The notes: generated from the sequence alone by a model not told the origin. A stretch of DNA of 64,000 nt from Candidatus Parcubacteria bacterium (GCA_026004535.1 BPJI01000002.1:688-64687); one strand, 5' to 3'; numbered from the stretch's first letter, positions 6,192-41,186 are shown. Numbers and translations are program-made.

Positions 6192-6555
6192 ATTTTATAG
6201 CATAAAGTAATGGCAATGATTTTACAACACCATATAACAAAAATCCAATTCCTGCCACAATTCCTACTTTTATAAACGTATTTGTGTAATTTGCATAAAA
6301 ATCATTGATTTTATTCAACCAACTGCGTTGGTCTTGTATCTCAACACCTCTATCCAACATTTGTTTATAAAAATAGTCATTTGATTTCAAACTTACATCT
6401 CCCAATTTTGAAAATGCATATAAGAATATAGAATTTGCCCTAAATTTTCCATACCTTCTTTTTAACTCATCATACCACAATATCCATTCTTCGGGTGTGG
6501 ATGATTTTGAAGGTATGGAAATTATAGATTCGGGCAAATCTTTATAATCCTTCAT
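6178..6555 (-). CDS. hypothetical protein (125 aa), C-terminal TM
   Basis: An ORF that overlaps its downstream neighbour by 14 nt. Confidence 0.5.
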   Translation of the reverse strand: MKDYKDLPESIISIPSKSSTPEEWILWYDELKRRYGKFRANSIFLYAFSKLGDVSLKSNDYFYKQMLDRGVEIQDQRSWLNKINDFYANYTNTFIKVGIVAGIGFLLYGVVKSLPLLYAIKYGRK

Positions 6556-6570
6556 TCAATTTTGTATTGA

Positions 6571-7305
6571 TTATCTTTTGTTCGGTTTTTTTGCGGGTTT
6601 ACGTCCACGTCTTGCGGGCTTTGGTTTTGATTCGGAACGGCTTGCGGGCTTACGTCCACTTCTTGCAGGTTTAGGCGTTGAAGCAGTTTGGCTTGCCGGT
6701 TTGCGTTTACGTTTTTTGGGCTTGCGTCCACGTCTTGCGGGCTTTGGTTTTGATTCTTCCTGGCTTGCGGGCTTGCGTCCACGTCTTGCGGGTTTTTTAT
6801 CTTCCTTGTCAATTTTGAAATCTGATGCATTTCTCTTTGCATCATCAACAGTTTTTACTCTACACGCAAAAGATGAAAGACCAATTTCATCTATGCCCAA
6901 TTTGATGCCACTTCTTACTTTTTTACCTTGATTGCTGCAATATTCTTTTATTTTTGCGCTATCATTTCCCGTATAGTCCTTATATACTTGTAAAAACTTT
7001 ACAGGGTCGGTCGTTGCTAATCTTGATATGATATAATCCCCCTTGTTGATAAGTTCGGATTTATCTCCCTTTTTGCCTTGCACTATCTCTACAGAAGATC
7101 CAATAGAAGACAGTGCATTTTCAAACGAACCTTTTTTGGATTTTGATTGCCCTACCAACTTTCTTTTACGTCCAAATTCGTTAACTACTGAAATTTCCGT
7201 TGTATATATTTTATTTTTCCCTTCTTTGGAAGAAAGGTGTTTGACATCCGTTACATAATAACGTAACGTTAAATGATAAACCTTATTTTTCGATTTTGTT
7301 GCCAT
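6571..7305 (-). CDS. DNA-binding-like protein with a C-terminal tandem K/R/P-rich AT-hook-like repeat
   Basis: The C-terminal roughly 75 aa carry four copies of a KPARRGRKPA(S) module, encoded by the GC-richer DNA tandem repeat at 6591-6800. Confidence 0.6.
   Translation of the reverse strand: MATKSKNKVYHLTLRYYVTDVKHLSSKEGKNKIYTTEISVVNEFGRKRKLVGQSKSKKGSFENALSSIGSSVEIVQGKKGDKSELINKGDYIISRLATTDPVKFLQVYKDYTGNDSAKIKEYCSNQGKKVRSGIKLGIDEIGLSSFACRVKTVDDAKRNASDFKIDKEDKKPARRGRKPASQEESKPKPARRGRKPKKRKRKPASQTASTPKPARSGRKPASRSESKPKPARRGRKPAKKPNKR
6591..6800. repeat. GC-richer tandem direct repeat with units of about 21-27 nt grouped into roughly 51-nt super-units, inside the 3' part of the coding region
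   Basis: The unit cttgcgggcttacgtccacgtc and its variants recur about 8 times. Confidence 0.8.
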
Positions 7306-12054: not shown

Positions 12055-12849
12055 TTAACGGCTGAATAATCCGCCCAAAATTGAGCGTTTTTCAACGGGT
12101 TGGCTTTCCATAGGTTGGTCGATGGAAGGAGCAGGTGCTTGAATGGTAGCAGCCGATTTAACCATTCCGCCTACTTCAGCAATGGGTCTACCACCAATCA
12201 TAGGAGTCGCAGGCACTGCTGAAGGTTCTAAAGGTCTTACCACAGGGCTTGCACCAAACAATTGATTAGAAGGTACTACTTGATTACCTACGAAGAAATT
12301 GAAGGTAATAGAAGAGTTAGGAGCAATGATACCAACGATGCTTGTTTTTGCATCTACTTTAATTTGCAACGGAACATCAACGATGCTTTGGTTTTGATAA
12401 CGTCCGTCAATGAAAGCAGAAACAGGTATGGAACTTGTGAGAGCCTTGCCTGAAGCATCTTTGGTTACTACTTTCAAAATTTGTTGCAAATTTGTTTGTG
12501 TTTGTGAAACAATACGAACACCTGCAAATACGGTAGGTTGGTTTGCGGTTTGTGTGTAAATTTCGGCATAGGTCAAATCAGGGTCGCCGGTAGTAATCCT
12601 AATTACACCACCGGAGGTTGGTACACCTTGTAGGTTTTGCTCACTCGGGTCGGTGATTTGAAACCTGTTGAAGTTAAATAACACAAATCTACCTTGATTT
12701 GCAGGGTCGGTGTTTGTAACAATAATTGAATAAGGGATAGAAGTCATTGCATACGGCAAAGTCCCTGCGGGAAGGCATCCTGAATCTAAAAGATAGTCAT
12801 GCCCATCCCCCATGTCGTATGCGAATCCAGTTTTTAAATTCCTGTTCAT
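12055..12849 (-). CDS. GC-rich, codon-biased gene for a probable abundant virion structural protein (264 aa)
   Basis: It is markedly GC-richer than its surroundings. The protein is Thr/Ser/Val/Gln/Gly/Pro-rich and beta-rich with no Lys/Asn bias, and its C-terminus is Pro/Ala-rich. It is followed by a strong terminator. Confidence 0.6.
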   Translation of the reverse strand: MNRNLKTGFAYDMGDGHDYLLDSGCLPAGTLPYAMTSIPYSIIVTNTDPANQGRFVLFNFNRFQITDPSEQNLQGVPTSGGVIRITTGDPDLTYAEIYTQTANQPTVFAGVRIVSQTQTNLQQILKVVTKDASGKALTSSIPVSAFIDGRYQNQSIVDVPLQIKVDAKTSIVGIIAPNSSITFNFFVGNQVVPSNQLFGASPVVRPLEPSAVPATPMIGGRPIAEVGGMVKSAATIQAPAPSIDQPMESQPVEKRSILGGLFSR

Positions 12850-12904
12850 AGTTTTAAATTTTTTTGGTTAAACATAATTGTTCATAAAAGAACTGCTTTC
12901 ATAA

Positions 12905-13009
12905 TTAATTGCCTTGTTCTTTGGTTGTGATTTTGAAATAAATCACATTGCCAATTACTACAGCAACTACTGAAAGCAGAAGACCGATTAAAACAGATTT
13001 TGCGTCCAT
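12905..13009 (-). CDS. 34-aa hydrophobic mini-protein (MDAKSVLIGLLLSVVAVVIGNVIYFKITTKEQGN)
   Basis: I translated it by hand; it is below the ORF-track cutoff. It shares the GC-richer codon style of the adjacent gene and has a single TM helix. Confidence 0.3.
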   Translation of the reverse strand: MDAKSVLIGLLLSVVAVVIGNVIYFKITTKEQGN

Positions 13010-13158
13010 AATTAAAAAGTTTTTAAGGTTAATAATTGCAATACAAATTTAGGTAAATTAAATACACAATAAAATTTTTTGCTGCTTTTATTTTTGTAGT
13101 AATATCATTTAGTTTTTAACCTACCGCCATTTTAATTATTAACAATACAAATGTGCTG

Positions 13159-13196
<38 letters not shown>

Positions 13197-13267
13197 CTGA
13201 ATTAACGTTCTAACTAAATATCAACCTACGACTCTTATTAACTAAATAAATTAAATTATAATATAAA

Positions 13268-13291
13268 TATTATTATTATTATTATTATTAT
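13268..13291. repeat. (ATT)8 microsatellite
   Basis: atattattattattattattattatc. Confidence 0.9.
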
Positions 13292-13293
13292 CT

Positions 13294-13510
13294 TGTTAAT
13301 AACTCAAAAAAAATCAAAAATTTTTTTGCTAAACAACTGATAATAAATTATTTAAACGCTAAAAGTTATTAACAATTGCTGTTAATAACTTGTTAATAAG
13401 TGCCATTTTATTGTTAATAACCTGTTAATAATATGTTCATTTTATATTTGTTTCAAAATAAGTAACTTAAATAAAAAAATTATTTTTGTATTATTAAAAT
13501 TGTTAATAAA
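13294..13510. promoter_or_regulatory. iteron array of at least seven copies of the mini-palindrome GTTAaTAAC/GTTAtTAAC; candidate replication origin or multi-operator region
   Basis: Copies at 13294, 13365 (inverted), 13381, 13392, 13412, 13423 and 13501. Two pairs lie 11 bp apart. GTTATTAAC-n7-GTTAATAAC forms an inverted repeat. The array sits at the divergence point of the two strand blocks. Confidence 0.5.
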
Positions 13511-13529
13511 GTTTTCTAAATTTTAAAAT

Positions 13530-13808
13530 ATGGAAAATTCAGAATTAAAAAGGAAAAATTTCTTGATAAAATCTATTCAAGATTATATTCAAGCAATTGA
13601 AAATGAAATAAATGAGAAAAAATTTAAAAGTTATGATGATTTATTGTTAATATACAAAAGGATTGAATACATTGAAGCATATATTTTATTCTCGAACGAT
13701 ATTTTTGATGAAAATAATGAAAGTGATAAAGAGTTAAAAAAAGAATTGATTAATAAATTAAAAAAACTAAATGAAGAGTTGTATAAAAGAATTGAGATTA
13801 ATAAATAA
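13530..13808 (+). CDS. hypothetical coiled-coil protein (92 aa)
   Basis: First ORF of the plus block, rich in charged heptad-like sequence. Confidence 0.45.
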   Translation: MENSELKRKNFLIKSIQDYIQAIENEINEKKFKSYDDLLLIYKRIEYIEAYILFSNDIFDENNESDKELKKELINKLKKLNEELYKRIEINK

Positions 13809-13813
13809 AAAAT

Positions 13814-15867: not shown

Positions 15868-18800
15868 ATGCAAGAAGGGAAACTTTTAAAATATAGCAAA
15901 AACGTACTGCTTGATTTATCAGGTAAAGTAAAATTTGCAGAGGACACTCTTATACCTTTTAATCTATCTGCAGAATTGAGCGAGCAAGAAACAAATCTTT
16001 TGTTTGACATATTAAAAGAATTAGAGAAGCATGAAGATATAAACAAAAACAAAAGTTTATACTCTTTATTATTGCAATATCTTGAACTTAAATTAAAGCC
16101 AGACAAAATAGATGATATTGCCGAAAATTTAACAGGGGAGCAATTATACGCAATTGCACTTGGGATAAGAAACTTTGAATCAAATAATCATAGAAAAGGT
16201 GTTATCATAGGTGATACGATGGGATTTGGTAAAACAAGAATAGCAGCGGGCTATGTTCAGTATTTTATTAACAGGCGAAATGCACCATTTTTTGTATGCT
16301 CAAAAGAAGTGTTATTAAGTGAAATAATCAACGAATATATTGAGATTAATAAATCTAAATTTTATGATGCAAATGGTAAATTTGATATTAAGAAAGCAAG
16401 GAAATTCAAATTGCTGCTTTTTAACGAAAGAAAAAATATAGATGTTTTATATAAAAAGGGTAAAGAATATGTATCTGAAACAATTTATAGTTCAGATATA
16501 AATGATTTGAAGAATTTTGTTGAAGATGTTTTAAATGATGAGTTGTTGAGAAAATTTATTTTGTTGTTTAACCTGTTTAACTTTTCCGGGAATAAAAATT
16601 TAAGTAAAGAAATTAAAAATTATAATAAAAATTTGGCAAAATATTACACTGATAAAAATAAAGTTAGAGATTCAAAAAAAGAAGAAGGGCATAAATATTA
16701 CTATTTTAAAATGTTGTTTTCTGTTGGTTATATTTTGCAAGATGATATTAATTTTGTTAAAAATAAAAGATTATTTTATGTTAACAATAAAGAAGAATTG
16801 GTTGATGTATTAGATTATTTGTCAGATATAATTGAAGATTTTGAAAATAAATACAATGAAGCGAAAAAAAGATTTTTTGAGATACTTGTCAATAATGGAT
16901 TTATTGGCATAGGGACAACATATTCTCAATTGAGAACAGATTTTAGTGCAAATGATTTATACATAAATGTTGATTTGTCAAATTTCTATAAAAAAGACAA
17001 TTTTAAAGTCAAATTTAAAAATAAAGACAATAAAACGTTAAAAAGCATATTGTTTAACTTAACAAGTATATTTACTAATGTAATTTATGACGAATCGCAC
17101 AATATCGCAGGTGCAGAAACTATTGGTAAAACTACTACAAACTTTTTGTATCATAATTTCCATCCATATCTGAATTTAATTGCTTTTGAAAGTTTACTTT
17201 ACTCTTTAGATATAAAAAAATATGAGTTAACAAAACCTATATTGCAAGAAAAATTAAAAAACGACGAAAAAAATAGGTTTTCAACTTTAATTGAAGCATT
17301 AAATACCACAAAGTTTATATATGTTTCAATTAGTAAAACATTTACTAATCTGCTTCCTGAAAATGACAATCAAAATGATGATAACAAAAAAGAATTTTTA
17401 TGGTTTTTAAATGATGCTTTGAAAAGTGATTATATATCTTTATCTAATGATTTTATATCGAATAAGTTTAGTGCGTTTATGTCAGCAACTTTTGTTAAAA
17501 ATAATGGTATTATAATGCCTATTTTGTCTTTGTTTACAGATATAGGCACATTCCCAAACAAGATGATGTATTTTATGAGTTTTGATACGAAGATGTTTAA
17601 TAGCGAAAATGCAATATATTTTAAGCAATATCTTCCTAAATATTTAACAAAAAGAGGTTATTATATCAATAGGCAATTTGAATTGGTCACACCGCAATAT
17701 GAACCTATTAATTACATAATAAATAAAAATCAAAAAGAAAATGTAAATGATATTTATAAAAGGTTTATCAATCATTTTAAATTGCTTAAATCCAAAAAAT
17801 ACATAATGGAGAATATTTATTCTTATTTTTTATTAAAAAACGTAATTGATGTTTATAATTTTAAAAATTCAACAGAAGGATATTTTATTGATATTTTTAG
17901 AGAGAATCTTGTTAATGTCAATAGTATTTTAACCTCTGTAAACACAAGCGATTATGGCAATTTCAAAAAATTATTCATAAAAACCATTATTGATATATCC
18001 AATTTTTGCGAGGATATAAGCATTATTGAAAAAGCGTTTGGAAAAAAAATAGATGATAGTATTGTGAATAATGATGTTTTATATGATATGTTAAACAATG
18101 ATAATGAATTTGATTATAAATTAAGATGCACATTTATTATTATTCAATTTGGTGCTATAAAATATGGGTTAAATAATTCAGAGATAAAAATAATTACTTT
18201 AATAGACGATTCGATTTATCAAAACACTTCAGGTTTTAATATTTGGAAGCGAATTGATGAATTAATAGGTGTAAAGGAAGAAGATAACTTTTTCACGAGT
18301 AATGGTTTTCAAATTTTCAAAAAATATAAAGAAGCCAAGGATTTTATATTAGAAACAAAAGGAAACGATATTAATAATGACAATAATGATTCTATATCAT
18401 ACAAAATTAATTTTGAATATACAATAGATGAAATTTTTCAACCTTATACAGAAAAAAGATATGAAAATATTCTAAAATTTTACGAAGACAATAACACGTA
18501 TTTTAATTTATATGCATATGCCAATACAGACCATTTACTTGCTGTAAGACGATTAATTGCCTCAAATATTATTTCAATGTTTACAAAATTTAATTTTGGA
18601 AGGTTTAATAATAGTTTGGTGAAAAATTTCATTACTGCAATAAAAACTGTTGATATAACTCACAAATCTATTGAAATATTAGAAGGAAACAAAAATGAAA
18701 AATTAGATTGGATTCCTAAAAACAACGATGGATATAAGTTAATTGTATCATATGACCATACATTTGATAACTATTCAAAGGTTATATTAAACTCTTATGA

Positions 18801-21800
18801 AGGAAAGAAAGTTAAAAACGATGTAAGATATTTATTTGACGCAATAGAAAAAGATAATAATGTTTTTAAGAATATAGCATATCAAATAAATTTAAACTTT
18901 GTGGTTGACGATTACGAAAAACTATTAAATAAATATAAAGATATAATTTTAGAAAAATATATTGAGTATTCAAAAGATAAACAATTACCAAATGTCGATA
19001 GAGCATTTCAAATAATTGACAAAACATATTCTTCATTATTTACAACCGAAAATGAATTTTCAGGGTTTCCCAATGATAAATTATTTTGTTTAAAAGGGCA
19101 ATACTCTATTTATAAAAACTTGCAATACTTATATCAAGAATATTTAATCAATAAAGATATTGATTATAATATCCCATTTCAGCCCTATGATTATATAAAC
19201 AATACATTAAAAAACTATTTCAGGCAAAAAGGAATTAAATTTAATATGCTTGATGGTACGGGGAGGAGATATAAATTTGAACAAATACAGGGAGACAGCG
19301 AAGGGTATGGATATATTATTAAGACAGGTGAAATTTTGGCAGATAGTGATGAAAGTGAAGACGATATTGACGATATTGATGAAAACGAATCTATATTAAC
19401 AACAAAAGATATTGAAAGTGATGAAGAAATTGAAAGTTCAGAAACAGAAAGTGAAGATGAAAATGTTTATGTTGCTGTTTCAAAAGACGAGAATTACATA
19501 ATTAATTTAAGAGAAAAAATTCATTTGTTTAATAATGATAATCAATACAATTTAATAATAATAAACAGGCGTGCTTCTGAAAGCGTATCCTTACATGCAT
19601 CAGAAAAGTTTAAAGACAGAAGACCGAGAGTAATGATTATTGCAGAAGCAGAATCTAACAGTATCAATGAGATACAAAAACGTGGCCGTATAAATAGAAG
19701 AGGGCAAGTCGCAAAACCTTATTATTACTATCCTTACACAACCATACCTTACGAGAAAAGAATAATTATGATGTTAAAGAAAAAATTGATTCATTTGGAA
19801 GGCGTTACAAAAGGAAATAGAAACCTTTCCGATTTTAGTGAGGAAGAATTAAGAAAATTGCAAGATTTAGAAAATGAAGATGCAAATAAAATATTAGTAG
19901 ATATATTGCAGAAAAAATTAAGCGATTCCAGTTTGCCACTATTTGATTTGCATCTTTCAGATATGCGTGATTTGTTTGCATTGATTCAAGATAATGAAAC
20001 GGGCAGAGATGAAAGACGCTTTAATAATAGGATTGCGAGTGGAAAAGGATTGATAACTAAATTTATGCAAAATTATTATGTGTTTGATTTTGAAACGCAA
20101 GAAACAATACTAAACTCACTTATTGAATCCTATTTTAATATAATAAAAGATGTTGTAGAAGAAAAACCAATAAAAGCAAATATAGAAAGTAGGGATGTAT
20201 TTTATTATTCTAATTACAACAGATATTACGATTACAATAATGAAAATTTAAATAATACATTAATTGAAATACCGGAAATAAAATATTCTTTAACTTATAG
20301 AGAAAAAAATAATAAAATCAATTATGCAAACATTTATATTGACGCAATTAAATATTTGTCTAATGTAGATGAAGATAAAAAAATTATTAATCAATACATT
20401 GCGTTTTTAAAATATGTAACAAAAGAAAATGAAAGTGTGGTGCAAGATGAAGTATTGGCAAATGTTTTGGATGTAGATAGTTTATATGAAGATTTATATT
20501 ACTATCATGAAAAGTTAATGCAGGGGGTTAATATAAATATAAAATATGCGTTTATATTATTAAAAGCATTCAACATATTTGCTTCTTCTTTAAACAAGAA
20601 AACGTACATTAATTTATTGCGTGGCTTCTATTACAAATTATACAAGACACATATTTTAGGTTTATATGAGAAAGTAATTGAAATGTTTTCACAGTTCAAC
20701 CAAAGGCAAAATTTAATAAGCCAGATTGATTATTTTTCTAACTTGCAACTATTCAAGCAAAATGTCGAATTGTTGTTAAATATACCGGAAATAGATAAAT
20801 ATCAAGATGGCGATGAGTATTTTGAGGAACAAATTTCAAAAATTGAAGGTAAATATCACTTAATTAAAGATGAAAATGGTGAAGAATTTAAATTATATGT
20901 TCTTGAAAGTAATGAAGGAGAGTCAAATGTGCCTGTCATAATGCAATTAGATAAGAAAATTGTAGATTTAATTATATATTTATCGGATGTTAACAGGGCA
21001 TATCTATATTACAAAAAGATTGTCGCACATATTTACGAGAGCATGAATAGGGAAGGAAGTGAAATAAGCAAAAATATATCTGATAAATTGAAAAAGGATA
21101 TATTGGATATTATAGTGAATAATAAACATGATTATTACAATAACAATATTGACATACATTTAAGAAAAGTAAAAAATGAAATTTATCACAATGCTCTTTG
21201 CAATGTGCTTGTTAAAAAAATGTATTTACAAGAAGCAAATAAAGTTGAAACGAAAATTTTTAAAGATGGTATATCATTGATTCAAAAAATAAATACAAAC
21301 TTGTATAAAAAATTGTATAAAGCATGGGAAAAAGTTTTCAATAAATTAGATAATGAAAATAATAATATAAATGATGTAATCAGAAAAATGTATTTTGGAA
21401 AAGATATAACTCAAGACGAATATTTAAAATTAGATAAAAAAGAAGTTGCAAAATTTGAGAAATATCAAAGTGAGGTAAAAAAATCATTGATATCGTACAC
21501 AAAATATTTGTTTGATAAAGCGGTTAAACATTATGAAGATAATTTGTTGAAAGATAAAGATGAAAATACAAATGTAAATTTTCACTTATATCAAAAGATA
21601 GATTTAAAAGAGTTGGTTGATTATGTAATTGACTATATGTCAAATAGCGAGTATGTTTTAACTAACGAAATAGTTAATGTTGTAGAGAAAGAAGCGTATA
21701 TTGAGGAGAACTATGATAAATTTGTCAAATTGCCAAAAAATCTTAAAGATTTATACATTAAAGAAATAAGATATGGCAATATAGAAATGCTGATTGATAA

Positions 21801-22440
21801 TATAATGATGAGAAATCCTATTTACACAAGTGTGCATGAGTTTAATAATTTTAGTTTAATGTATCCGGCATTTATGTTTTTAACCACAAACTATAATGAT
21901 ATTAAATTTACTTCAATATTTAATATTATATATAATTTAAAAGGTACAACTGTGTCAGGCAATCCTTCCAATGCAGTAATGTTTATTACAAATATGAAAG
22001 AGCGTCAATTTAAATTAGTGATTGCATTTTTAGATAAAGTTGTTAGTGATAATGAAGTAACAATACTGAAGCAAGATTTTTCTAAAATTTTCTTTGATAT
22101 GCAAAATAAATTAGACATAGATAGTGTTAAAGAATATGATGTTTATTCTAAAGACAAAGAAATAGAAAAAGCTTTGGATGTGTATGAAAAAATTGAAAGC
22201 GAAAACAAAGTGCAGGTTGTAGCAAACAATATATTTTATACATTGAATGACAAGTTTATTGATGCAAACCTAAAAAGCAAAACATTTTTGATTGGTGAAG
22301 GTATATTCAGTCAACCTTTAACAGGAATAATAATTAATGCAACAAGTGAGGGCGGAATAGATGAAGAGACACCTGTGTTAAACATTAATATACCAATTAA
22401 AATTGATAACATTACGGATATAATTAATAATATAAATTAA
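15868..22440 (+). CDS. giant (2190 aa) SNF2/DExH-like superfamily-2 helicase with an insertion of about 850 aa between the two RecA lobes and a C-terminal extension of about 900 aa
   Basis: Motifs at helicase-appropriate positions: motif I GDTMGFGKT (nt 16210-16236), motif Ia FFVCSKEVLLSEI, motif II VIYDESHNIAG (nt about 17089), an SAT-like MSATF, motif V-like NRRASESVSLHA and motif VI QKRGRINRRGQ (nt about 19675). An acidic D/E/S low-complexity linker sits just before the C-terminal lobe. Confidence 0.75.
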   Translation: MQEGKLLKYSKNVLLDLSGKVKFAEDTLIPFNLSAELSEQETNLLFDILKELEKHEDINKNKSLYSLLLQYLELKLKPDKIDDIAENLTGEQLYAIALGIRNFESNNHRKGVIIGDTMGFGKTRIAAGYVQYFINRRNAPFFVCSKEVLLSEIINEYIEINKSKFYDANGKFDIKKARKFKLLLFNERKNIDVLYKKGKEYVSETIYSSDINDLKNFVEDVLNDELLRKFILLFNLFNFSGNKNLSKEIKNYNKNLAKYYTDKNKVRDSKKEEGHKYYYFKMLFSVGYILQDDINFVKNKRLFYVNNKEELVDVLDYLSDIIEDFENKYNEAKKRFFEILVNNGFIGIGTTYSQLRTDFSANDLYINVDLSNFYKKDNFKVKFKNKDNKTLKSILFNLTSIFTNVIYDESHNIAGAETIGKTTTNFLYHNFHPYLNLIAFESLLYSLDIKKYELTKPILQEKLKNDEKNRFSTLIEALNTTKFIYVSISKTFTNLLPENDNQNDDNKKEFLWFLNDALKSDYISLSNDFISNKFSAFMSATFVKNNGIIMPILSLFTDIGTFPNKMMYFMSFDTKMFNSENAIYFKQYLPKYLTKRGYYINRQFELVTPQYEPINYIINKNQKENVNDIYKRFINHFKLLKSKKYIMENIYSYFLLKNVIDVYNFKNSTEGYFIDIFRENLVNVNSILTSVNTSDYGNFKKLFIKTIIDISNFCEDISIIEKAFGKKIDDSIVNNDVLYDMLNNDNEFDYKLRCTFIIIQFGAIKYGLNNSEIKIITLIDDSIYQNTSGFNIWKRIDELIGVKEEDNFFTSNGFQIFKKYKEAKDFILETKGNDINNDNNDSISYKINFEYTIDEIFQPYTEKRYENILKFYEDNNTYFNLYAYANTDHLLAVRRLIASNIISMFTKFNFGRFNNSLVKNFITAIKTVDITHKSIEILEGNKNEKLDWIPKNNDGYKLIVSYDHTFDNYSKVILNSYEGKKVKNDVRYLFDAIEKDNNVFKNIAYQINLNFVVDDYEKLLNKYKDIILEKYIEYSKDKQLPNVDRAFQIIDKTYSSLFTTENEFSGFPNDKLFCLKGQYSIYKNLQYLYQEYLINKDIDYNIPFQPYDYINNTLKNYFRQKGIKFNMLDGTGRRYKFEQIQGDSEGYGYIIKTGEILADSDESEDDIDDIDENESILTTKDIESDEEIESSETESEDENVYVAVSKDENYIINLREKIHLFNNDNQYNLIIINRRASESVSLHASEKFKDRRPRVMIIAEAESNSINEIQKRGRINRRGQVAKPYYYYPYTTIPYEKRIIMMLKKKLIHLEGVTKGNRNLSDFSEEELRKLQDLENEDANKILVDILQKKLSDSSLPLFDLHLSDMRDLFALIQDNETGRDERRFNNRIASGKGLITKFMQNYYVFDFETQETILNSLIESYFNIIKDVVEEKPIKANIESRDVFYYSNYNRYYDYNNENLNNTLIEIPEIKYSLTYREKNNKINYANIYIDAIKYLSNVDEDKKIINQYIAFLKYVTKENESVVQDEVLANVLDVDSLYEDLYYYHEKLMQGVNINIKYAFILLKAFNIFASSLNKKTYINLLRGFYYKLYKTHILGLYEKVIEMFSQFNQRQNLISQIDYFSNLQLFKQNVELLLNIPEIDKYQDGDEYFEEQISKIEGKYHLIKDENGEEFKLYVLESNEGESNVPVIMQLDKKIVDLIIYLSDVNRAYLYYKKIVAHIYESMNREGSEISKNISDKLKKDILDIIVNNKHDYYNNNIDIHLRKVKNEIYHNALCNVLVKKMYLQEANKVETKIFKDGISLIQKINTNLYKKLYKAWEKVFNKLDNENNNINDVIRKMYFGKDITQDEYLKLDKKEVAKFEKYQSEVKKSLISYTKYLFDKAVKHYEDNLLKDKDENTNVNFHLYQKIDLKELVDYVIDYMSNSEYVLTNEIVNVVEKEAYIEENYDKFVKLPKNLKDLYIKEIRYGNIEMLIDNIMMRNPIYTSVHEFNNFSLMYPAFMFLTTNYNDIKFTSIFNIIYNLKGTTVSGNPSNAVMFITNMKERQFKLVIAFLDKVVSDNEVTILKQDFSKIFFDMQNKLDIDSVKEYDVYSKDKEIEKALDVYEKIESENKVQVVANNIFYTLNDKFIDANLKSKTFLIGEGIFSQPLTGIIINATSEGGIDEETPVLNINIPIKIDNITDIINNIN

Positions 22441-30795: not shown

Positions 30796-32667
30796 ATGAA
30801 CGAATTAGGATGGAAAAATAATGGAAATGGTGGCGGTGGTGGTAGCGTCAACATATACAGGTCTTTAGATATTTATATTGACACTGTATATGGAGACGAT
30901 ACTACTGCTGAAATTGGCAATTTTGCCAAACCATACAAGACATCAACAAATGTTTTGAGTGATTTAAATAATTATTTGGCATCCAATTCAATAAACAATG
31001 TTTATATTCACGTTAGCGGTTTGGATAACGATTCATTTAGTTTTAACACATCCGTTTTAACTAATGCAGGAAATTTGAATTTTTATTTTAACATATACAA
31101 CAAGATAAATATAACCATTGATTATTCTTCAATCAACACGCAAAAATTTTCATTTGTTTTTACGCCTGAAACAAATAAAATACAAGCAGAAGGATTTGAT
31201 TACTTTACAAACGTTAATATTAATTTTGTTAACGTAAATTCTTTTGAAACCAATATAAATTTTAACAACATATCATTTAATTTGAATTTGAATGGTCAAA
31301 TAAACACAAATCATGTGTTGTCTGTCTTTGTTAAAGATGTTAATTTTGGAAATAGTTACATTTATGATGGCGCAACATATTCGGATATAAAAAAATATTT
31401 TTATATCAATAATTCACAAAATATATACATTGAAGAGTATCTTAATAATATTACTTATTTTGAAAATTTATACGCTGAAAATTGTCAAAATATCACATAC
31501 TACAATGAATTTAATGATAGTTTGTCAATAGATTATTCGTCACCGGGCATCACAATGGAACATATCATTACAAATACCAAAGATTTTAAATACGATAGTA
31601 TATTAGAATACATAGAAATAATGGATATAAGAAATTCAAGTGTAATAATTCCAGAGAAAATAATTTGTAGTACATTTAATTCTCAAAACAGTGATATAAT
31701 ACGATCCGAAACTTTTAAATTAGAAAGCGTTAAATATCCTTTCGTAATTTTAAAGGAATTTAATATCAGCAATACAAAATTGACATATAAACATATGGGA
31801 TTTAACCCGCCTAATTTGATGTCCCCGGAGATAATATTCTACGGAAACATTAAATCAAAAATTCTAAATAGTTACATTGAGTTGGGTTTAAATTATTTTT
31901 TGTTTGATGAAGGAGAAATAAATATATTTAATTCGTCCGTCAACAATCTTTTGTATCCGCAGAAAGAAGTAAATTATGTGATAAAAATATCAGACATTGA
32001 TGATAAAGATATTAACGGGACGGTTTTAAATAATTCGTTTAACGTGCCATTGGGAAGAGCAATCAGGGTAAATGCGGATATAAGAAATTCAAATTTGTAT
32101 TTTTTGGTTAGTGATGATTTTCAACAAACTCCACCTAACAAATATTTTATGATATTCCAAGACATGTGGGAAGAAAACAGATATACGGGATATATTGACA
32201 TAAGAAATACGAGTATGATATTTAATAACTTATTGAATATATATAATGATAATTTGATAACATTTACTTTTTCCGAATTTTTCTCACCGCTTGTCAGATT
32301 ATATGATTTTAATACGAACGGATTTGTTAATAATACATTGAATTTATATAGATTTATAGGCGAATCAATACATTGTGTAAGGATTATAGATGGAAATGTT
32401 CCCAACAATGTAAATATAAGAAAAGAGGATTATCTGATATATGTGGCAAGACCGATTACAATTATGCTGCCTGACTTAACGGGTACAAACTTTAATAATA
32501 AAACATATACCATTAAAAACATTAACACATCCGAACCCATTACAATACAGGCAACAGGCGGGATACAAATAGACGGTGTGTCGTCATATAACTTGTTGCC
32601 AAACGAATCCATAACTTTGCAATATGTGGATTATCTAAATAAATATCTGATAATAAATAAGTTTTAG
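30796..32667 (+). CDS. N-rich fibre or receptor-binding-like protein (623 aa)
   Basis: A Gly-rich N-terminus (NGNGGGGGS) followed by long Asn/Ile/Thr-rich sequence with beta-repeat character, of the kind seen in tail fibres and spikes. Confidence 0.4.
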   Translation: MNELGWKNNGNGGGGGSVNIYRSLDIYIDTVYGDDTTAEIGNFAKPYKTSTNVLSDLNNYLASNSINNVYIHVSGLDNDSFSFNTSVLTNAGNLNFYFNIYNKINITIDYSSINTQKFSFVFTPETNKIQAEGFDYFTNVNINFVNVNSFETNINFNNISFNLNLNGQINTNHVLSVFVKDVNFGNSYIYDGATYSDIKKYFYINNSQNIYIEEYLNNITYFENLYAENCQNITYYNEFNDSLSIDYSSPGITMEHIITNTKDFKYDSILEYIEIMDIRNSSVIIPEKIICSTFNSQNSDIIRSETFKLESVKYPFVILKEFNISNTKLTYKHMGFNPPNLMSPEIIFYGNIKSKILNSYIELGLNYFLFDEGEINIFNSSVNNLLYPQKEVNYVIKISDIDDKDINGTVLNNSFNVPLGRAIRVNADIRNSNLYFLVSDDFQQTPPNKYFMIFQDMWEENRYTGYIDIRNTSMIFNNLLNIYNDNLITFTFSEFFSPLVRLYDFNTNGFVNNTLNLYRFIGESIHCVRIIDGNVPNNVNIRKEDYLIYVARPITIMLPDLTGTNFNNKTYTIKNINTSEPITIQATGGIQIDGVSSYNLLPNESITLQYVDYLNKYLIINKF

Positions 32668-34172: not shown

Positions 34173-34715
34173 ATGAAAATGATTGAAAACATACAATTAG
34201 AAACAAATTTTTGGCTTTATGAATTCTTACATTCTGATATTGCCGAAAGATTTCCAGATATAAAGAAAAAACAATTCAATCCACCTAAAAGCGTTTTGGA
34301 AGAGTTAAAATTAACCGCACAAATGATGCAGAGAATAAGAGATTTATGCACCAGACACATAGATAACAAAATTGTTATACATATTACATCGGGATACAGA
34401 TGCCCTGATTTGAACAAAATAATAAGTAAAAGTAAAACATCAGACCATATGTTTGGCAGGGCTGCCGATTTTGTCATGTATAAAGACGGACAAGTAATAA
34501 AAGATTGTGATAAAATTAAGTATTTATATCAGTTGATTATGACGCATATAAGTTATTATCAATTGATAAAAGAGTATGGCACACGTTCCGTTCCGGCGTG
34601 GACCCATATATCACAAAGAGTGAATAAGAATCAAAATATTAAACAAAATTTGGAAATAGGGCAACATACAAAAAATAATTACGTAATTTTGGATATGAAT
34701 AAATGGAAATGCTAA
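34173..34715 (+). CDS. peptidase M15-family (VanY/L-Ala-D-Glu-like) zinc peptidase; endolysin candidate
   Basis: HITSGYRCPDLNKIISKSKTSDHMFGRAADF matches the M15 SGYR...H(x6)D core, with the downstream His provided by the SDH segment. Confidence 0.7.
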   Translation: MKMIENIQLETNFWLYEFLHSDIAERFPDIKKKQFNPPKSVLEELKLTAQMMQRIRDLCTRHIDNKIVIHITSGYRCPDLNKIISKSKTSDHMFGRAADFVMYKDGQVIKDCDKIKYLYQLIMTHISYYQLIKEYGTRSVPAWTHISQRVNKNQNIKQNLEIGQHTKNNYVILDMNKWKC

Positions 34716-34724
34716 ATTGAGATT

Positions 34725-35111
34725 ATGACAAAATTAGGTAAGTTTATTAGAATATTGCATTTATTCTTGTATTTTATAGGCAGTTTTGCTGCAAGAGTAA
34801 AGTTGCATAATTACACCCTTGCCTCTATTTTGCATATTGCTTTTAATATAGTTCTTGTAATTTTATTTTTGAATAATCTTAAAGAAATTACAGGGATATT
34901 AAAAGAATTTATATCACCACAGCATACGTTTATAATCTTTTTTTTAATTTTAGCCGCATATAATATTTTTTTTGTTTTTGTTTACAGGAGAAATTTTTTT
35001 GAAAACACATATAGTGAGTTTGATATAAATATCGGGATTTCCGACAAAAATAATGAGAAAAAATCAGATGATGAATTTGAGGAGAAAAAATCAGAAAATA
35101 ATGCAGGTTAA
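34725..35111 (+). CDS. holin candidate: a 3-TM protein with a charged C-terminal tail
   Basis: It lies immediately downstream of the M15 peptidase. It has three hydrophobic helices and a highly charged tail, SDKNNEKKSDDEFEEKKSENNAG. Confidence 0.45.
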   Translation: MTKLGKFIRILHLFLYFIGSFAARVKLHNYTLASILHIAFNIVLVILFLNNLKEITGILKEFISPQHTFIIFFLILAAYNIFFVFVYRRNFFENTYSEFDINIGISDKNNEKKSDDEFEEKKSENNAG

Positions 35112-36452: not shown

Positions 36453-37634
36453 ATGGAAGAGGTCATATTAAAAAATTTAAAATTACAAATATCAAAAGAT
36501 TCTTTAGAAGCGCTATTCGGAGAAGATTATAATAAAGTTTACAAAGATAAAGACAACATATATGCAAGAACTTTGGCAGGGCATATTAATACCGCAATAA
36601 AATTAAGTAACACATTGAAAGATTATTTGGATAAAATGCAAAAATATGATAAAGATTATAAATTGTATAATAAAATATCAAAAGAATACTATCTTTATTA
36701 CACGCTAATAGGTGGATACCTTATGATGTTGAAACTGTTAAAAGATGGGATGTCCAAAGAAGAATTTATTAAAGAGTTCCCCGACACTAAATTGTCAAAC
36801 ATAATAAAAGAAAACACCGGTTTAAAATTAGATGTGCAGAAGTTGAACGACATATTAAACAGGTTTAATAAAGTGTTGATTAGTGAGAGATTTGATAAAG
36901 ATGAGAGTGTTGATTTGTTTATTAAGTATGCAAACGAAATTATTAACCAAAGAGGTGGCGTAAGCGAGGTTAAAGAAACTGTATCAGATACAGAAACTAT
37001 TGAAGAGAAATTGGAAGAATTACAAGAGGCAGAACAAGAATTGGAGCAAGAGGCAGAAAAAGAGGCGGAGCAAGAAACAGAGACAGAAAAAGAAGCAGAT
37101 AAAAGTAAGAGCGTATCAAGAGAGTATCAGGATGAAATTAAAACCGTCATTTATGATATAAAAGAAGGCAGAGAGGAGTTTTTCAATGCTTTGATTGAGA
37201 AGGTTAATGAAGAAGATGATGACGTATTTGTAAACTTTAATGTTTTGAAACATGTATTAGAAGCAATTCAATATGAAGATTTAAATGTTATAGACATAGT
37301 AAAAGAAATTATTGAAGAGAAAATTGATAATGTAAGAAAAGAATATGATAAAAAAATATCAGAACTGACGAAAAAAATTGAAATGCAACAAAAGGTAATT
37401 CAGGAACTTTCAAAATTGTTGAATGAACACGTAAAAATTACAAAGGAAATTAATGAAAAATTGAATCAGGTTAATCAAAAAACAGAAAAAGTTAAAATGG
37501 TAGTTGAATATAAGGCAGAAGGAAAAAAACCAGAAGAAAAACAAGAAACAATAAAAAAACCATCTGTAAAAAGAAGAATAAGTTTTATCAGCAAAGACGA
37601 ATATACACGTGGAAGCACACGGGGACGTATATAA
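36453..37634 (+). CDS. coiled-coil E/K-rich protein (393 aa)
   Basis: Long EQELEQEAEKEAEQETETEKEADK runs and a heptad-like C-terminal half. Confidence 0.5.
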   Translation: MEEVILKNLKLQISKDSLEALFGEDYNKVYKDKDNIYARTLAGHINTAIKLSNTLKDYLDKMQKYDKDYKLYNKISKEYYLYYTLIGGYLMMLKLLKDGMSKEEFIKEFPDTKLSNIIKENTGLKLDVQKLNDILNRFNKVLISERFDKDESVDLFIKYANEIINQRGGVSEVKETVSDTETIEEKLEELQEAEQELEQEAEKEAEQETETEKEADKSKSVSREYQDEIKTVIYDIKEGREEFFNALIEKVNEEDDDVFVNFNVLKHVLEAIQYEDLNVIDIVKEIIEEKIDNVRKEYDKKISELTKKIEMQQKVIQELSKLLNEHVKITKEINEKLNQVNQKTEKVKMVVEYKAEGKKPEEKQETIKKPSVKRRISFISKDEYTRGSTRGRI

Positions 37635-37676
37635 ATTATAAATAAATAATAAAACAAACAATAAAATCTAAACATT

Positions 37677-38177
37677 ATGAGAAGGAATTATAAATTCATA
37701 CAGCACAAAAAATCTAATCATCTATACGTATTTGTGCCTACAGGAAACCGTGAAACTAAAACCATCGGTTATCTAATGCAGGTTAAAATTAAAGACAACA
37801 AATTTGAAGGAGTATTAAGTTTTAAACCTTGCGAATATAATGAAGCGGATTATGTTGAATTGGATAAAAATGACCCACGTTTCAAAGATTTGTTGGAAAT
37901 TGACTATATGTTTACAGATATTCAAGCATTGATTAGATTGGCTGATAGCAGAAAAATTAAAAAAACAGAACAAGAAAAGGTTCAGAAAGATGATGTCAAT
38001 AACAATGAAGTAGAAACAAAAGAAGTTGATTTGACAGATAGCAAAGAAAGTGAAAAAGAAACCGAAGAAAATGAAAAAATAGATGAGTCAATGAGCAGCG
38101 AAGTAGATTCAAAGGAAAATAAAAAAAGCGTAACAAAAAAAAGAACGAGCAAAAAGAAAAATACTTCCAAAAAGTAA
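37677..38177 (+). CDS. protein with a globular N-domain and a Lys-rich H1-like tail (166 aa)
   Basis: The C-terminus reads KKSVTKKRTSKKKNTSKK. Confidence 0.5.
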   Translation: MRRNYKFIQHKKSNHLYVFVPTGNRETKTIGYLMQVKIKDNKFEGVLSFKPCEYNEADYVELDKNDPRFKDLLEIDYMFTDIQALIRLADSRKIKKTEQEKVQKDDVNNNEVETKEVDLTDSKESEKETEENEKIDESMSSEVDSKENKKSVTKKRTSKKKNTSKK

Positions 38178-38213
38178 AAAAAAAGAAATATAACTAATAA
38201 AAAATTAATAATT

Positions 38214-39305
38214 ATGGAAACAATTGTAACAAGAGTAAATTTGATTAATTACATTAAAGAGTGCAAAAAAGTAAACATTCCAAACAGGAATAAGTTTTTG
38301 CTTTATATTTCAGAATTGTATAAAGCCATTGAGCGTTCAGAAGAAGGAATGGTATATGAAGAGAACGAGCAATGGATAAGTGAAATTGGAAAAGATAAAA
38401 ATTTAGTAAAAGACATAAATGAACGTTTTGGATATAACATTTACAAAGATGTTGTAACAGACATAGATAGTATCAATGAAAGATTGAATGAGTTGACAGA
38501 CGAAATTGATAACGCTTCGTATTCAAGTGATGACAGCATATTAAAAGAGTATAATTGTGAGAGTTATCAAAAGTTGTATAATGAATTTATTGAGAAAACC
38601 GAAGTGTTATTTAATGAAATTATTGAGGTGAATAAAAAAATTGACAGAATGAAAAAAGAATATGAAGACATAACCGGCGAGAATAAAGAAGAAGAAGAAG
38701 TGAAGGAAGTTGATGAGGTAAAAGTTAATAAGGGGGAAAATAAAGAAAACAATCTTGTAAAAGATGAAGATGAAGAGGTAAAGGAAGTTGATAGTGAAAT
38801 TGACGACGAGAATGAGGACGATGAGGATTATGAGGGCGATGAAGACGATGAAACCATTGAGGATGAATTGGAAGACGGGAGCGATGATGAAAATAATGAT
38901 ATTAAAACTTCGAGGGAGCAGGTTGATTTTAGAAATCAATTCCTACCAAAAATAAACAAATTTGACAAATCAAAATCTGAAAAAAGCGAGTTAAAAGAAA
39001 AAAATTCTTCATTTGTAATAATGGCATTTAATATTAGCGATAAAAATGAAGAAAACAAACAAGATGCTGTAAAAAAAGCAGGTCTATTAGCGGGTTCGGA
39101 ACAAAATAAAGACAGCCATGATATAGATATAAATAAAAAGAATGCTTTATTAAATCACTTCAAAAAATTTCCATTCATTTACGAAGAAGATTTAGTTAAA
39201 TTTGGCAAAATAAATGAGAAAAAAAGCGGATTGTTTTCCAAAGTGTATGTTTGTCAGGGAATAGAATTAAAAAAGAAAGGCAATAAATATTTTATGAGCA
39301 AATAA
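38214..39305 (+). CDS. highly acidic low-complexity protein (363 aa)
   Basis: Long D/E runs, for example DEDEEVKEVDSEIDDENEDDEDYEGDEDDETIEDELEDGSDDENND. Confidence 0.5.
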   Translation: METIVTRVNLINYIKECKKVNIPNRNKFLLYISELYKAIERSEEGMVYEENEQWISEIGKDKNLVKDINERFGYNIYKDVVTDIDSINERLNELTDEIDNASYSSDDSILKEYNCESYQKLYNEFIEKTEVLFNEIIEVNKKIDRMKKEYEDITGENKEEEEVKEVDEVKVNKGENKENNLVKDEDEEVKEVDSEIDDENEDDEDYEGDEDDETIEDELEDGSDDENNDIKTSREQVDFRNQFLPKINKFDKSKSEKSELKEKNSSFVIMAFNISDKNEENKQDAVKKAGLLAGSEQNKDSHDIDINKKNALLNHFKKFPFIYEEDLVKFGKINEKKSGLFSKVYVCQGIELKKKGNKYFMSK

Positions 39306-39306
39306 A

Positions 39307-39831
39307 ATGACCGGTCGTGCCGAAAATCTTACCAAAATTTACCTATTATCATCTATATTGATGTTTGTTTCGTCCTATTTTTTTTATTATGTCGTAAATG
39401 TAAAATATAAAGGCATAAAAAGCAATAAGGATAATAAAGAGCCGTTATTTCCTTTAGATAAGAAAATCGTAACTTCTAAATTTGGTTTTAGAATACATCC
39501 AAAATATAAAATACCGAAATTCCACAATGGCGCCGATTATGCAGGCAAAACGGGAGATAAGATATATGCAAGTGATGATGGTATTGTTATAGATAAATTT
39601 TACAATAACGCAGGTGGAAATCAGTTAATAATACAATATCCCAATTTGAAAAATTTAAAATTCGGATATGCCCACCTTAATAAAATATACGTGGAGAAAG
39701 GCGAAAAAGTCAAACGAGGTCAAGTTATCGCAGAGGTTGGAAATACAGGCGTCTCAACAGGTTCACATCTACATTTGACAATAAAAGATTCAAATGGTGT
39801 TTATATTGACCCGGAATCTATATTTGCATAA
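39307..39831 (+). CDS. peptidase M23 (LytM-type) with an N-terminal signal-anchor
   Basis: HNGADYAGKTGDKIYASDDGIV...GYAHL...GNTGVSTGSHLHLTIKD matches the M23 HxxxD / HxH signature. An N-terminal TM segment, LLSSILMFVSSYFFYYVVNV, precedes it. Confidence 0.75.
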   Translation: MTGRAENLTKIYLLSSILMFVSSYFFYYVVNVKYKGIKSNKDNKEPLFPLDKKIVTSKFGFRIHPKYKIPKFHNGADYAGKTGDKIYASDDGIVIDKFYNNAGGNQLIIQYPNLKNLKFGYAHLNKIYVEKGEKVKRGQVIAEVGNTGVSTGSHLHLTIKDSNGVYIDPESIFA

Positions 39832-39857
39832 AATTTAAAAGATAAAAATTAAAGCAT

Positions 39858-41186
39858 ATGGAAAATATAAATGATGAAATCAAAAATGATATTCAAGAAG
39901 ACATTTTAAAGGAAATTCAAAGTCAGTTGGCAAATAAAACGCCGGAAATATCGTCCGATGATTATTTGGATGATGATGTTTCGGAAATAGATGACAATTA
40001 TGATGATGAAAATGATACAGATATAGATAATAGTGAAGAATTTGAAGATGGTGAAGTGATTGAAGAGAGTGCGGAAGAAGTATCAAATTTCAATCAATTT
40101 GCCGAGCCGTCAAAAGACATTCCAAATATAGATTATTCTAAATATTCAGAAGGTTCGCAGGTATATTTAAGCCCTGAAAAGATTGAAAAAAATGCAAGAA
40201 AAACTGCAGAGACAATTGTCGTAATTGGTGTTTCTAATTTAGAGAAGATTGCCAAGAGTATAGCGAAATTTAATTTAATAAAAATGGAGTCGTGGCATAT
40301 AAACGGCAAAATTGATATAGATGCCAAAATTAAGGACTCTGATGGTGATATTATTACGGCAAGAGAGTATATGGCAGAGTTTAATGAGAAGGTTGATACT
40401 ATAATTAGTTTAGATAAGGACTTAAAAGAAGGTTTGTATGACTCTATTTATGAGTTGGCCAAAGAAAGTAAGACAGGTGGTTTAACTGCTTCGCAAAGAT
40501 TGATGTTATATGGAGTAGCGGGATTGTTGGATGTGGGAGAAAAAACAATTATGCTTACGCAAATGAAACACGAGTTTATTAATATGTTGAAAAGACAAAA
40601 AGCAGAAAAAGAACAAGAAAATTTGCATACCGACACTTCATTCAACCCGGATATGGAAGAAAGCATGTTGGAAAAAATAATAGAAGAAAAAACCAAAATG
40701 GATATGCAAAGTGAGAGAGATATAGAGTCAATGAACAATCGTGATTTGGATTTGGATGAAATAAGGGCAAATGTTGAAAAACAACAATCACAATTCAAAC
40801 AAAATAGTGTTGACGATAAAGAAGAAGTTTTTGATGCGAATGAATTTAATACTATCATAGAAGATGATTTTGCTGACATTGACTTGCCAAATGGTCAAAG
40901 TATAAATATAAATGAAATAGATATTGAAGATGAAATTGATAATAATGAAAATAATGATGAAGATGATGAAGTTATCTATGTGCCGAAAGAAAATAGTGAA
41001 GACACACAAGACGATTTTACGGATTTAGAGATTAAAAAGGACAAAAAGAAAAATAAAAAGAACGATGATGATGAGATAGGCAATTTTGATATAAGTAGGA
41101 ATATGCCGAGCGATTTAAGTAATTTTGAGAGTGAAGAAGGCGAACCTAAACGCAGGAGAGGTCGTCCCAGAAAAGAAATAAAATGA
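39858..41186 (+). CDS. highly acidic protein ending in a canonical AT-hook (442 aa)
   Basis: Multiple D/E runs. The C-terminus PKRRRGRPRKEIK contains an RGRP AT-hook core. The four antisense ORFs inside it are spurious. Confidence 0.55.
   Translation: MENINDEIKNDIQEDILKEIQSQLANKTPEISSDDYLDDDVSEIDDNYDDENDTDIDNSEEFEDGEVIEESAEEVSNFNQFAEPSKDIPNIDYSKYSEGSQVYLSPEKIEKNARKTAETIVVIGVSNLEKIAKSIAKFNLIKMESWHINGKIDIDAKIKDSDGDIITAREYMAEFNEKVDTIISLDKDLKEGLYDSIYELAKESKTGGLTASQRLMLYGVAGLLDVGEKTIMLTQMKHEFINMLKRQKAEKEQENLHTDTSFNPDMEESMLEKIIEEKTKMDMQSERDIESMNNRDLDLDEIRANVEKQQSQFKQNSVDDKEEVFDANEFNTIIEDDFADIDLPNGQSININEIDIEDEIDNNENNDEDDEVIYVPKENSEDTQDDFTDLEIKKDKKKNKKNDDDEIGNFDISRNMPSDLSNFESEEGEPKRRRGRPRKEIK

Follow-up and report, generated by a model that had tools for sequence, protein, structure and literature searches.

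The gene at positions 6571-7305 (minus strand) of a 64,000-nucleotide (nt) stretch of DNA from Candidatus Parcubacteria bacterium (GCA_026004535.1 BPJI01000002.1:688-64687; this whole stretch, as analysed here, is called the window) encodes a basic protein of 244 amino acids (aa) with four KPAR(R/S)GRKP cores in its last 76 residues. The sequence is best read as that of a protein which, in a dark phage-like element, anchors DNA or shapes its architecture through several contacts of low specificity, and we consider it fairly probable that the protein binds DNA through its RGRKP modules. The novelty is confined to the orphan domain to which the modules are joined and to the obscure element that hosts the gene; the module array itself is a known device.

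Four RGRKP Modules in a Disordered Tail

The C-terminal tail (aa 169-244; positions 6574-6801, minus strand) is polycationic, with 33 Lys and Arg residues to 4 Asp and Glu and an isoelectric point (pI) of 12.0. A single-sequence AlphaFold2 model predicts it to be disordered, with no secondary structure and predicted local distance difference test (pLDDT) values of 43-55. The final 76 residues read DKKPARRGRKPASQEES-KPKPARRGRKPKKRKRKPASQTAST-PKPARSGRKPASRSES-KPKPARRGRKPAKKPNKR, which bears out the four-module C-terminus claimed in an earlier, sequence-only reading of this DNA. The cores of module 1 (aa 171-179; 6769-6795), module 2 (aa 188-196; 6718-6744) and module 4 (aa 229-237; 6595-6621) are all KPARRGRKP, and that of module 3 (aa 212-220; 6646-6672) is a degenerate copy, KPARSGRKP; all lie on the minus strand, as does an extra basic insert, KKRKRKP, which follows module 2 (aa 197-203; 6697-6717). 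The acidic elements of the tail are only short (DKEDK, QEES and SES).

The open reading frames (ORFs) of the window, 18,040 aa in all, would be expected to contain 0.68 RGR triplets and contain six. Three of these are in the 244-aa protein, within 63 residues, two are at the C-termini of acidic proteins and one is in a large helicase. The clustering of RGR in the 244-aa protein is far beyond chance. When all six frames of the window were scanned, the pattern [KR].?GRK?P was confined to two ORFs.

Relation to AT-Hooks and Other Minor-Groove Motifs

Several traits of AT-hooks are present in the tail, namely the K-P-A-R-RGR-K-P-A/K context, basic flanks, bracketing prolines and the occurrence of four copies in a disordered chain. 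The core RGRKP is found in MeCP2, where it is annotated by InterPro as AT-hook 2, and a peptide containing it binds DNA (PMC5028900). The triplet inserted into the groove by HMGA1, Lsr2 and Bv3F is likewise RGR, and replacing RGR by AGA abolishes binding (PMC8476142). Comparison with sequences from the PDB showed that RGRKPA has the RGR-x-P-A spacing in common with TGQGRTPA of H-NS (1hnr) and STRGRIPA of Lsr2 (6qkp).

Like HMGA1 and HMGA2, the 244-aa protein carries several RGR-centred basic modules in a disordered chain, with flexible linkers of 10-25 residues, and it would be expected to bind A/T tracts by placing RGR in their minor groove. It differs from them in having RGR-K-P rather than RGRP, and its N-terminal proline is three residues upstream instead of adjacent. 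It also has no acidic C-terminal tail, and its modules are attached to a globular orphan domain some 165 residues long. AT-hook 2 of MeCP2 (PKKRGRKP) presents the same RGRKP core in a disordered basic context, but as a single copy that is a secondary contributor beside the methyl-CpG-binding domain, whereas the 244-aa protein has four.

The resemblance to H-NS, Lsr2 and Bv3F lies in the [Q/R]GR-x-P-A pattern. These silencers are prokaryotic, act on the minor groove of AT-rich DNA and are frequently encoded by phages or plasmids. In them, however, the motif is one loop of a folded domain that is accompanied by an oligomerisation domain, while the tail of the 244-aa protein is predicted to be unstructured and holds four copies, and neither an H-NS nor an Lsr2 domain was matched in the protein (Pfam, E≤10). 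CarD of Myxococcus xanthus is a bacterial precedent, since it joins a globular protein-interaction domain at the N-terminus to exactly four hooks (PMC2919716). The CarD hooks are canonical, like those of HMGA, and have a strongly acidic region next to them, unlike the tail described here with its 4 acidic and 33 basic residues, and the CarD_CdnL_TRCF domain (PF02559) is absent from the 244-aa protein, which has no Pfam match to it.

The Same Modules in Other Proteins

A word-indexed protein search with the 244-aa protein matched the protein itself and one further protein (P0002, from a Bacteroidia contig), the latter through the repeat only. P0002 contains ten (P/E)AKRGRKPK repeats, by virtue of which it scores above the Pfam gathering threshold for Histone_HNS. 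A search with the tail by itself gave no match, since the composition filter takes the tail out. We also scanned IMG/VR for pairs of RGRKP cores with a spacing of 17 residues. Of the 14 loci obtained, 12 are genuine arrays, with 2-6 copies per viral ORF.

Five of the proteins, from giant-virus metagenome-assembled genomes (MAGs; loci L008, L009, L010, L012 and L018), are about 330-450 aa long and are encoded on contigs of 22-32% GC. In these, 2-4 KKRGRKPK modules at the N-terminus are followed by a Cys-rich WCxWCxHxF...FCSxxCAAAY domain, for which there was no Pfam match and which we take to resemble the zinc fingers of viral late transcription factors. Another giant-virus protein is an SNF2-type helicase carrying three modules. 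On a 260-kb contig, L013:660-1838 (plus strand) encodes a 393-aa, H1-like basic AKKPAAKK protein with four copies of APAKRGRKPAAAK near its C-terminus. On a 190-kb contig, the array of L016:8291-8965 (minus strand; the ORF is incomplete, as it runs off the end of the 8,967-base locus examined) mixes three canonical KRRGRPPKNP modules with three (K/A/R)(K/R)RGRKPK modules and also contains KKRGPKPK. At the level of sequence, this mixed array is direct evidence that the canonical and RGRKP variants are interchangeable. In addition, some viral ORFs that are otherwise unrelated carry a single, exact KPARRGRKP tag at a terminus.

The tandem (K/A)KRGRKPK arrays (L008-L019 and P0002) thus have the same RGRKP module as the 244-aa protein, and the viral ones are mostly on AT-rich DNA. 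None of them carries its N-terminal domain; their partners are the giant-virus Cys-rich domain, the SNF2 helicase and the H1-like AKKPAAKK region, all uncharacterised. Viewed as a whole, these sequences mark RGRKP as a naturally occurring AT-hook variant, which AT-rich viruses widely append to DNA-acting proteins.

An Orphan N-Terminal Domain

The N-terminal region (aa 1-168; 6802-7305, minus strand) is an orphan domain of about 165 aa with a pI of 9.7. It had no match in Pfam (E≤10) or PHROG, and no paralogue within the window. An exhaustive phmmer search of 1.84 billion representative proteins matched only the protein itself, and no relative was detected by PDB sequence searches, by tblastn against 50,697 phage records or by genome scans of IMG/VR and GTDB. 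Synteny did not provide another route, the 708-aa upstream gene being without a relative in IMG/VR.

The AlphaFold2 model of the protein has a mean pLDDT of 47. Only aa 16-66, a beta-beta-beta-alpha unit, are modelled with confidence, and no oligomerisation coiled coil is predicted. Foldseek searches of the PDB and BFVD gave no match at E≤1e-3. The weak matches are scattered among S5- and double-stranded RNA-binding domain (dsRBD)-like domains, a LeuA regulatory domain and Rad52/Erf/SSB-like proteins.

Proposed Mode of DNA Binding

The gene, its repeat, the motif pattern, the orphan status and the presence of such modules in other AT-rich viral proteins are observed; that the protein binds DNA, enters the groove, condenses the genome or has any part in a virion is inferred from them. 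The protein would consist of two parts, the orphan N-terminal domain of about 165 aa and a disordered tail of about 75 aa that would serve as a multivalent, AT-hook-like DNA anchor. On the model of HMGA, Lsr2 and H-NS, the Arg-Gly-Arg of each KPAR-RGR-KPA module would enter an A/T tract by way of its narrow minor groove, and the flanking Lys, Arg and Pro residues would touch the phosphate backbone and steer the chain along it. Avidity would come from the four modules, 17-24 residues apart, together with the KKRKRKP patch. Several A/T tracts could be contacted at once, on one duplex or on two, and the DNA would be bent, bridged or compacted. A+T makes up 72% of the element, and A/T runs of at least 6 bp, 2,694 in number, cover 37% of the 64-kb window, so that binding to the element's own genome would be essentially sequence-non-specific. 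The role envisaged is an architectural one, of the nucleoid-associated type, in which the N-terminal domain would determine what is tethered or oligomerised.

Several observations weigh against this interpretation. The AT-hook core is defined as RGRP, with an invariant G-R-P (PMC5028900). This core is absent from the tail, where three cores are RGRKP and one is SGRKP, with Lys between GR and P, and in module 3 Ser replaces the first groove arginine. The Pfam AT_hook model (PF02178) matched neither the whole protein nor the tail alone at E≤10, a weak test in that a canonical hook elsewhere in the window itself scores 8.8 bits against a cut-off of 17.4. The sole RGRKP peptide to have been tested, that of MeCP2, showed 'barely detectable' AT-hook character and required about 25-fold more protein than the HMG-I hook, behaviour that the authors ascribe to the displaced proline (PMC5028900). 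The AT specificity proposed in the sequence-only reading is therefore not to be assumed for the 244-aa protein and is not borne out by this peptide, which is barely AT-selective. The presence of four copies could offset the weak binding of RGRKP via avidity. Nine of the 12 array-bearing loci have a GC fraction of at most 0.36, but this bias is weak evidence because AT-rich genomes favour K-rich motifs anyway. The protein has no homologues in any collection searched, hence conservation across relatives is not demonstrable. Finally, the gene shares its wobble positions with an antisense ORF (6578-6931), which limits the synonymous-site test given below. The resemblance to AT-hooks that had been noted from the sequence stands as kinship, in view of AT-hook 2 of MeCP2, the H-NS/Lsr2 pattern and the mixed L016 array; it does not extend to the RGRP core or to a Pfam match.

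If the tail binds DNA, the protein would be a phage-like example of AT-rich viruses fitting RGR(K)P modules to unrelated proteins as DNA tethers. This pattern of tethering would span giant-virus MAGs, large phage contigs and the present element, and would offer a simple rule, open to testing, by which 'dark' proteins of viruses could be annotated. The 244-aa protein would also be a compact natural four-hook reagent with which to ask whether the weak preference of RGRKP for AT-rich DNA is made good by multivalency. The potential value is greater in the context, a homologue-poor element with an operon rich in membrane proteins, than in the repeat itself.

Alternative Functions of the Tail

The alternative that survives best, although we think it unlikely, is that the tail is a generic polycation with no specificity for A/T tracts or the minor groove, and that the protein condenses the genome inside a particle as a core protein. 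Its analogues would then be adenovirus proteins VII and Mu or the Arg-rich arms that capsid proteins of small viruses carry, and the RGR triplets would be incidental. The little AT preference shown by the MeCP2 RGRKP peptide (PMC5028900) favours such a tail, as do the density of basic residues (33 in 76 aa) and the KKRKRKP patch, and the operon in which the gene lies, with 12 of 19 products having a single transmembrane (TM) helix and an all-beta 264-aa protein encoded first, recalls the structural operons of internal-membrane viruses. Yet KPARRGRKP occurs in three exact copies, with the variation mostly at third codon positions, which points to a specific motif over bulk charge. Moreover, the window yielded neither a capsid protein nor a portal or packaging enzyme, and the model of the 264-aa protein, with a pLDDT of 35, is unusable.

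Binding to RNA is an improbable alternative, in which the RGR modules, arginine-rich like extended AT-hooks and arginine-rich motifs, and the beta-beta-beta-alpha unit, resembling a dsRBD or the N-terminal domain of ribosomal protein S5, would hold a structured RNA. The best Foldseek matches in the PDB were indeed S5 N-terminal domains, dsRBD-like domains and TARBP2, and a review deals with the binding of RNA by disordered regions of proteins (PMC9539567). These fold matches are all non-significant (E 0.06-0.3) and derive from a poor model (pLDDT 47), and other weak matches fall elsewhere, on the LeuA regulatory domain and among Rad52/Erf/SSB-like proteins. In other proteins, furthermore, these modules are fused to DNA-acting partners (the SNF2 helicase and the H1-like protein).

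We rank lower still the possibility that the protein is a xenogeneic silencer or counter-silencer that coats AT-rich DNA of the element or host, and so represses or de-represses transcription, in the manner of plasmid and phage homologues of H-NS and Lsr2. The RGR-x-P-A pattern is common to H-NS and Lsr2, regulators of this type are frequent on mobile elements, and the giant-virus KKRGRKPK proteins carry a Cys-rich domain that is presumably like that of late transcription factors. Against this, the 244-aa protein has no H-NS or Lsr2 fold, no Pfam match and no predicted coiled coil for oligomerisation, and no discrimination would be possible in a genome of 72% A+T.

The Gene and Its Reading Frame

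That the ORF is not a functional gene but a chance frame lengthened by a GC-rich, non-coding DNA repeat is extremely improbable: the repeat does open several frames and the protein has no homologues, but the ORF is longer than the longest clearly spurious ORFs, its ATG start, the orientation of its neighbours and the tight 15-nt spacing suit the 19-gene block, the differences between cores are mostly at third positions and an independent NCBI annotation exists. The product (pI 10.5, 27.3 kDa) is the most basic among all ORF products of the window. Its length of 244 codons compares with a ceiling of about 150 aa for clearly spurious ORFs in this window of 27.6% GC. The gene is co-oriented with a block of 19 genes, with a gap of 15 nt from stop to next start. 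The product is identical to 'MAG: hypothetical protein KatS3mg096_586 [Candidatus Parcubacteria bacterium]' of NCBI, which is encoded on a 69,155-bp contig.

Four spurious ORFs overlap the gene. These are a 117-aa ORF with a TTG start, antisense to the co-directional block (6578-6931, plus strand), and three others found by the ORF scan at 6552-6848 (minus strand), 6567-6674 (plus strand) and 6678-6818 (plus strand). They are open because the GC-rich island is poor in stop codons, which are AT-rich. The sequence-only reading was correct in regarding such ORFs as artefacts but had counted three.

Five sites vary among the four 27-nt cores. Four of the five are at third codon positions and one is non-synonymous, a third-position excess with a Fisher p=0.009 (on rough counts of about 7 synonymous and 20 non-synonymous sites). 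This pattern is consistent with selection acting on the peptide. As the wobble positions are shared with the antisense ORF at 6578-6931, the test leaves both of these frames standing and excludes the other four, and the frame of the gene was chosen over the antisense one on the basis of ORF length, the ATG start and operon orientation.

The DNA Repeat

At the DNA level the module cores are spaced 51, 72 and 51 nt apart, the longer spacing after module 2 being due to the KKRKRKP insert. A repeat search identified two 84-nt copies with 86% identity: copy A (6589-6672), which comprises modules 4 and 3, and copy B (6712-6795), which comprises modules 2 and 1. The two copies represent a duplicated two-module unit with a period of 123 nt, and a third, overlapping register aligns at 69%. 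This arrangement suggests that the module was duplicated first and that the pair was duplicated afterwards. Tandem Repeats Finder with default settings reported only two fragments, one with a period of 21 nt at 6692-6744 (score 57) and the other with one of 8 nt. The clear tandem repeat described earlier is real as an 84-nt unit; with its uneven spacing and the fragmentary output of Tandem Repeats Finder, it is not a clean array.

The repeat has a GC content of 51-55% per 100-nt window, compared with 27.6% for the window as a whole, and the GC-richest 200 nt of the 64 kb start at 6591 (54.5%), in agreement with what had been noted from the sequence. As the GC content at third codon positions (GC3) is just 0.32 in the tail and 0.26 in the background, the island is mainly a footprint of Pro, Ala, Arg and Gly codons and carries no separate signal. 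Horizontal acquisition of the repeat, which its GC content had suggested, was rejected on the same GC3 values. A few atypical codons (CCC and CGT/CGC) recur in the tail; they were copied along with the repeat, so that the copies are not independent.

Other Proteins with Terminal RGR Triplets

An acidic protein of 442 aa (pI 4.2), encoded at 39858-41186 on the plus strand, has the C-terminus PKRRRGRPRKEIK. It carries a canonical AT-hook core, RRGRP, in the context PKRRRGRPRKE (core at 41154-41168, plus strand). The sequence-only reading had pointed to this second protein and its terminal hook, and the protein does end in EPKRRRGRPRKEIK. With the Pfam AT_hook model it gave E=2.2 and 8.8 bits, below the cut-off. 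A third terminal RGR, ...STRGRI (37614-37631, plus strand), is at the C-terminus of a 393-aa acidic coiled-coil protein encoded at 36453-37634. The combination of an acidic body with a terminal DNA hook might mark internal or ejected proteins that are tethered to DNA.

Both genes belong to a cluster for charge-extreme proteins (36453-41186, plus strand), whose other products are an M23 peptidase with a TM anchor (39307-39831), a 166-aa protein with a K/S-rich tail and a 363-aa protein (pI 4.6) that includes a long run of D/E.

The Element Around the Gene

The recognisable functions encoded in the window include RecT, a YqaJ-type exonuclease, peptidases M15 and M23, GH108, a Holliday-junction resolvase and two or three DNA methyltransferases. 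By its content of genes for lysis enzymes, RecT/YqaJ, a resolvase and methylases the element looks phage-like. No capsid, portal or terminase was detected in the window, even at E≤1. Packaging of the 244-aa protein in a virion, as proposed in the sequence-only reading, presumes a virus with a recognised capsid and was thus overstated, none being identified. The contig is labelled as part of a Candidatus Parcubacteria MAG (hot-spring series KatS3mg) and may represent a novel virus or mobile element rather than chromosomal DNA.

The leftward block (12849 to 321, minus strand), to which the gene belongs, consists of 19 ORFs. A single predicted TM helix, N- or C-terminal, is present in 12 of the 19 products, compared with 4 of 27 in the rightward block that was scanned. 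No Pfam or PHROG match was obtained for proteins of the leftward block. Its arrangement is reminiscent of structural operons in viruses with an internal membrane, or else of a secretion or surface apparatus. The gene that opens the block (12055-12849, minus strand) encodes a 264-aa all-beta orphan with a Pro/Ala-rich C-terminus. It contains a 196-bp stretch free of A/T runs of at least 6 bp, and the patch in which it lies ranks second in GC content within the window. The protein matched only itself and one 2.9-kb Logan contig (source run DRR290133), and its AlphaFold2 model was unusable (pLDDT 35). It is possible, as a speculation, that this protein is a capsid protein.

A bolder picture, which we regard as a long shot, is that the 69-kb contig is the genome of a hitherto unseen kind of hot-spring virus, binned with Parcubacteria, a lineage of the candidate phyla radiation (CPR). 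It would have, encoded in the leftward operon, an all-beta capsid, a dozen single-pass proteins of an internal membrane and the RGRKP-repeat protein as a genome condenser similar to adenovirus protein VII, and the acidic proteins encoded at 36453-37634 and 39858-41186 would be further DNA-tethered internal proteins. If this were true, it would be a case, in a bacterial virus, of AT-hook-like modules of a genome-condensing core protein matched to a genome of 72% A+T.

Orphans make up nearly all of the proteins tested, including those of 708, 623, 856, 482 and 264 aa. The 623-aa protein (30796-32667) is Asn-rich and looks by eye like a beta-helix. At 34173-35111 (plus strand), a Peptidase_M15-like ORF (SGYRCP...SDHMFGRAADF; the Pfam Peptidase_M15_3 match was assigned to it by eye from these motifs) is directly followed by a gene for a 128-aa protein with two predicted TM helices. 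The pair is a probable endolysin-holin cassette and would support a lytic, phage-like lifestyle.

A 2,190-aa Strawberry-notch-type helicase (AAA_34, ResIII and Helicase_C_4) is encoded at 15868-22440 (plus strand); giant helicase proteins of such size in phages and plasmids, for example DarB of P1, serve anti-restriction. At 51078-52436 (plus strand) a PolyA_pol head domain is combined with an HD domain, as in CCA-adding enzymes, and ARAGORN found no tRNA gene in the 64-kb window.

The two divergent blocks are separated by about 1 kb (12850-13813) that contains a T35 tract (13162-13196) and (TAT)8 (13268-13291). Eight of the 11 copies of TGTTAATAA in the window are clustered at 13136-13509; 4.4 copies would be expected window-wide, and none of 100 shuffled sequences reached 11. 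This segment is a candidate operator or iteron cluster, or a candidate replication origin.

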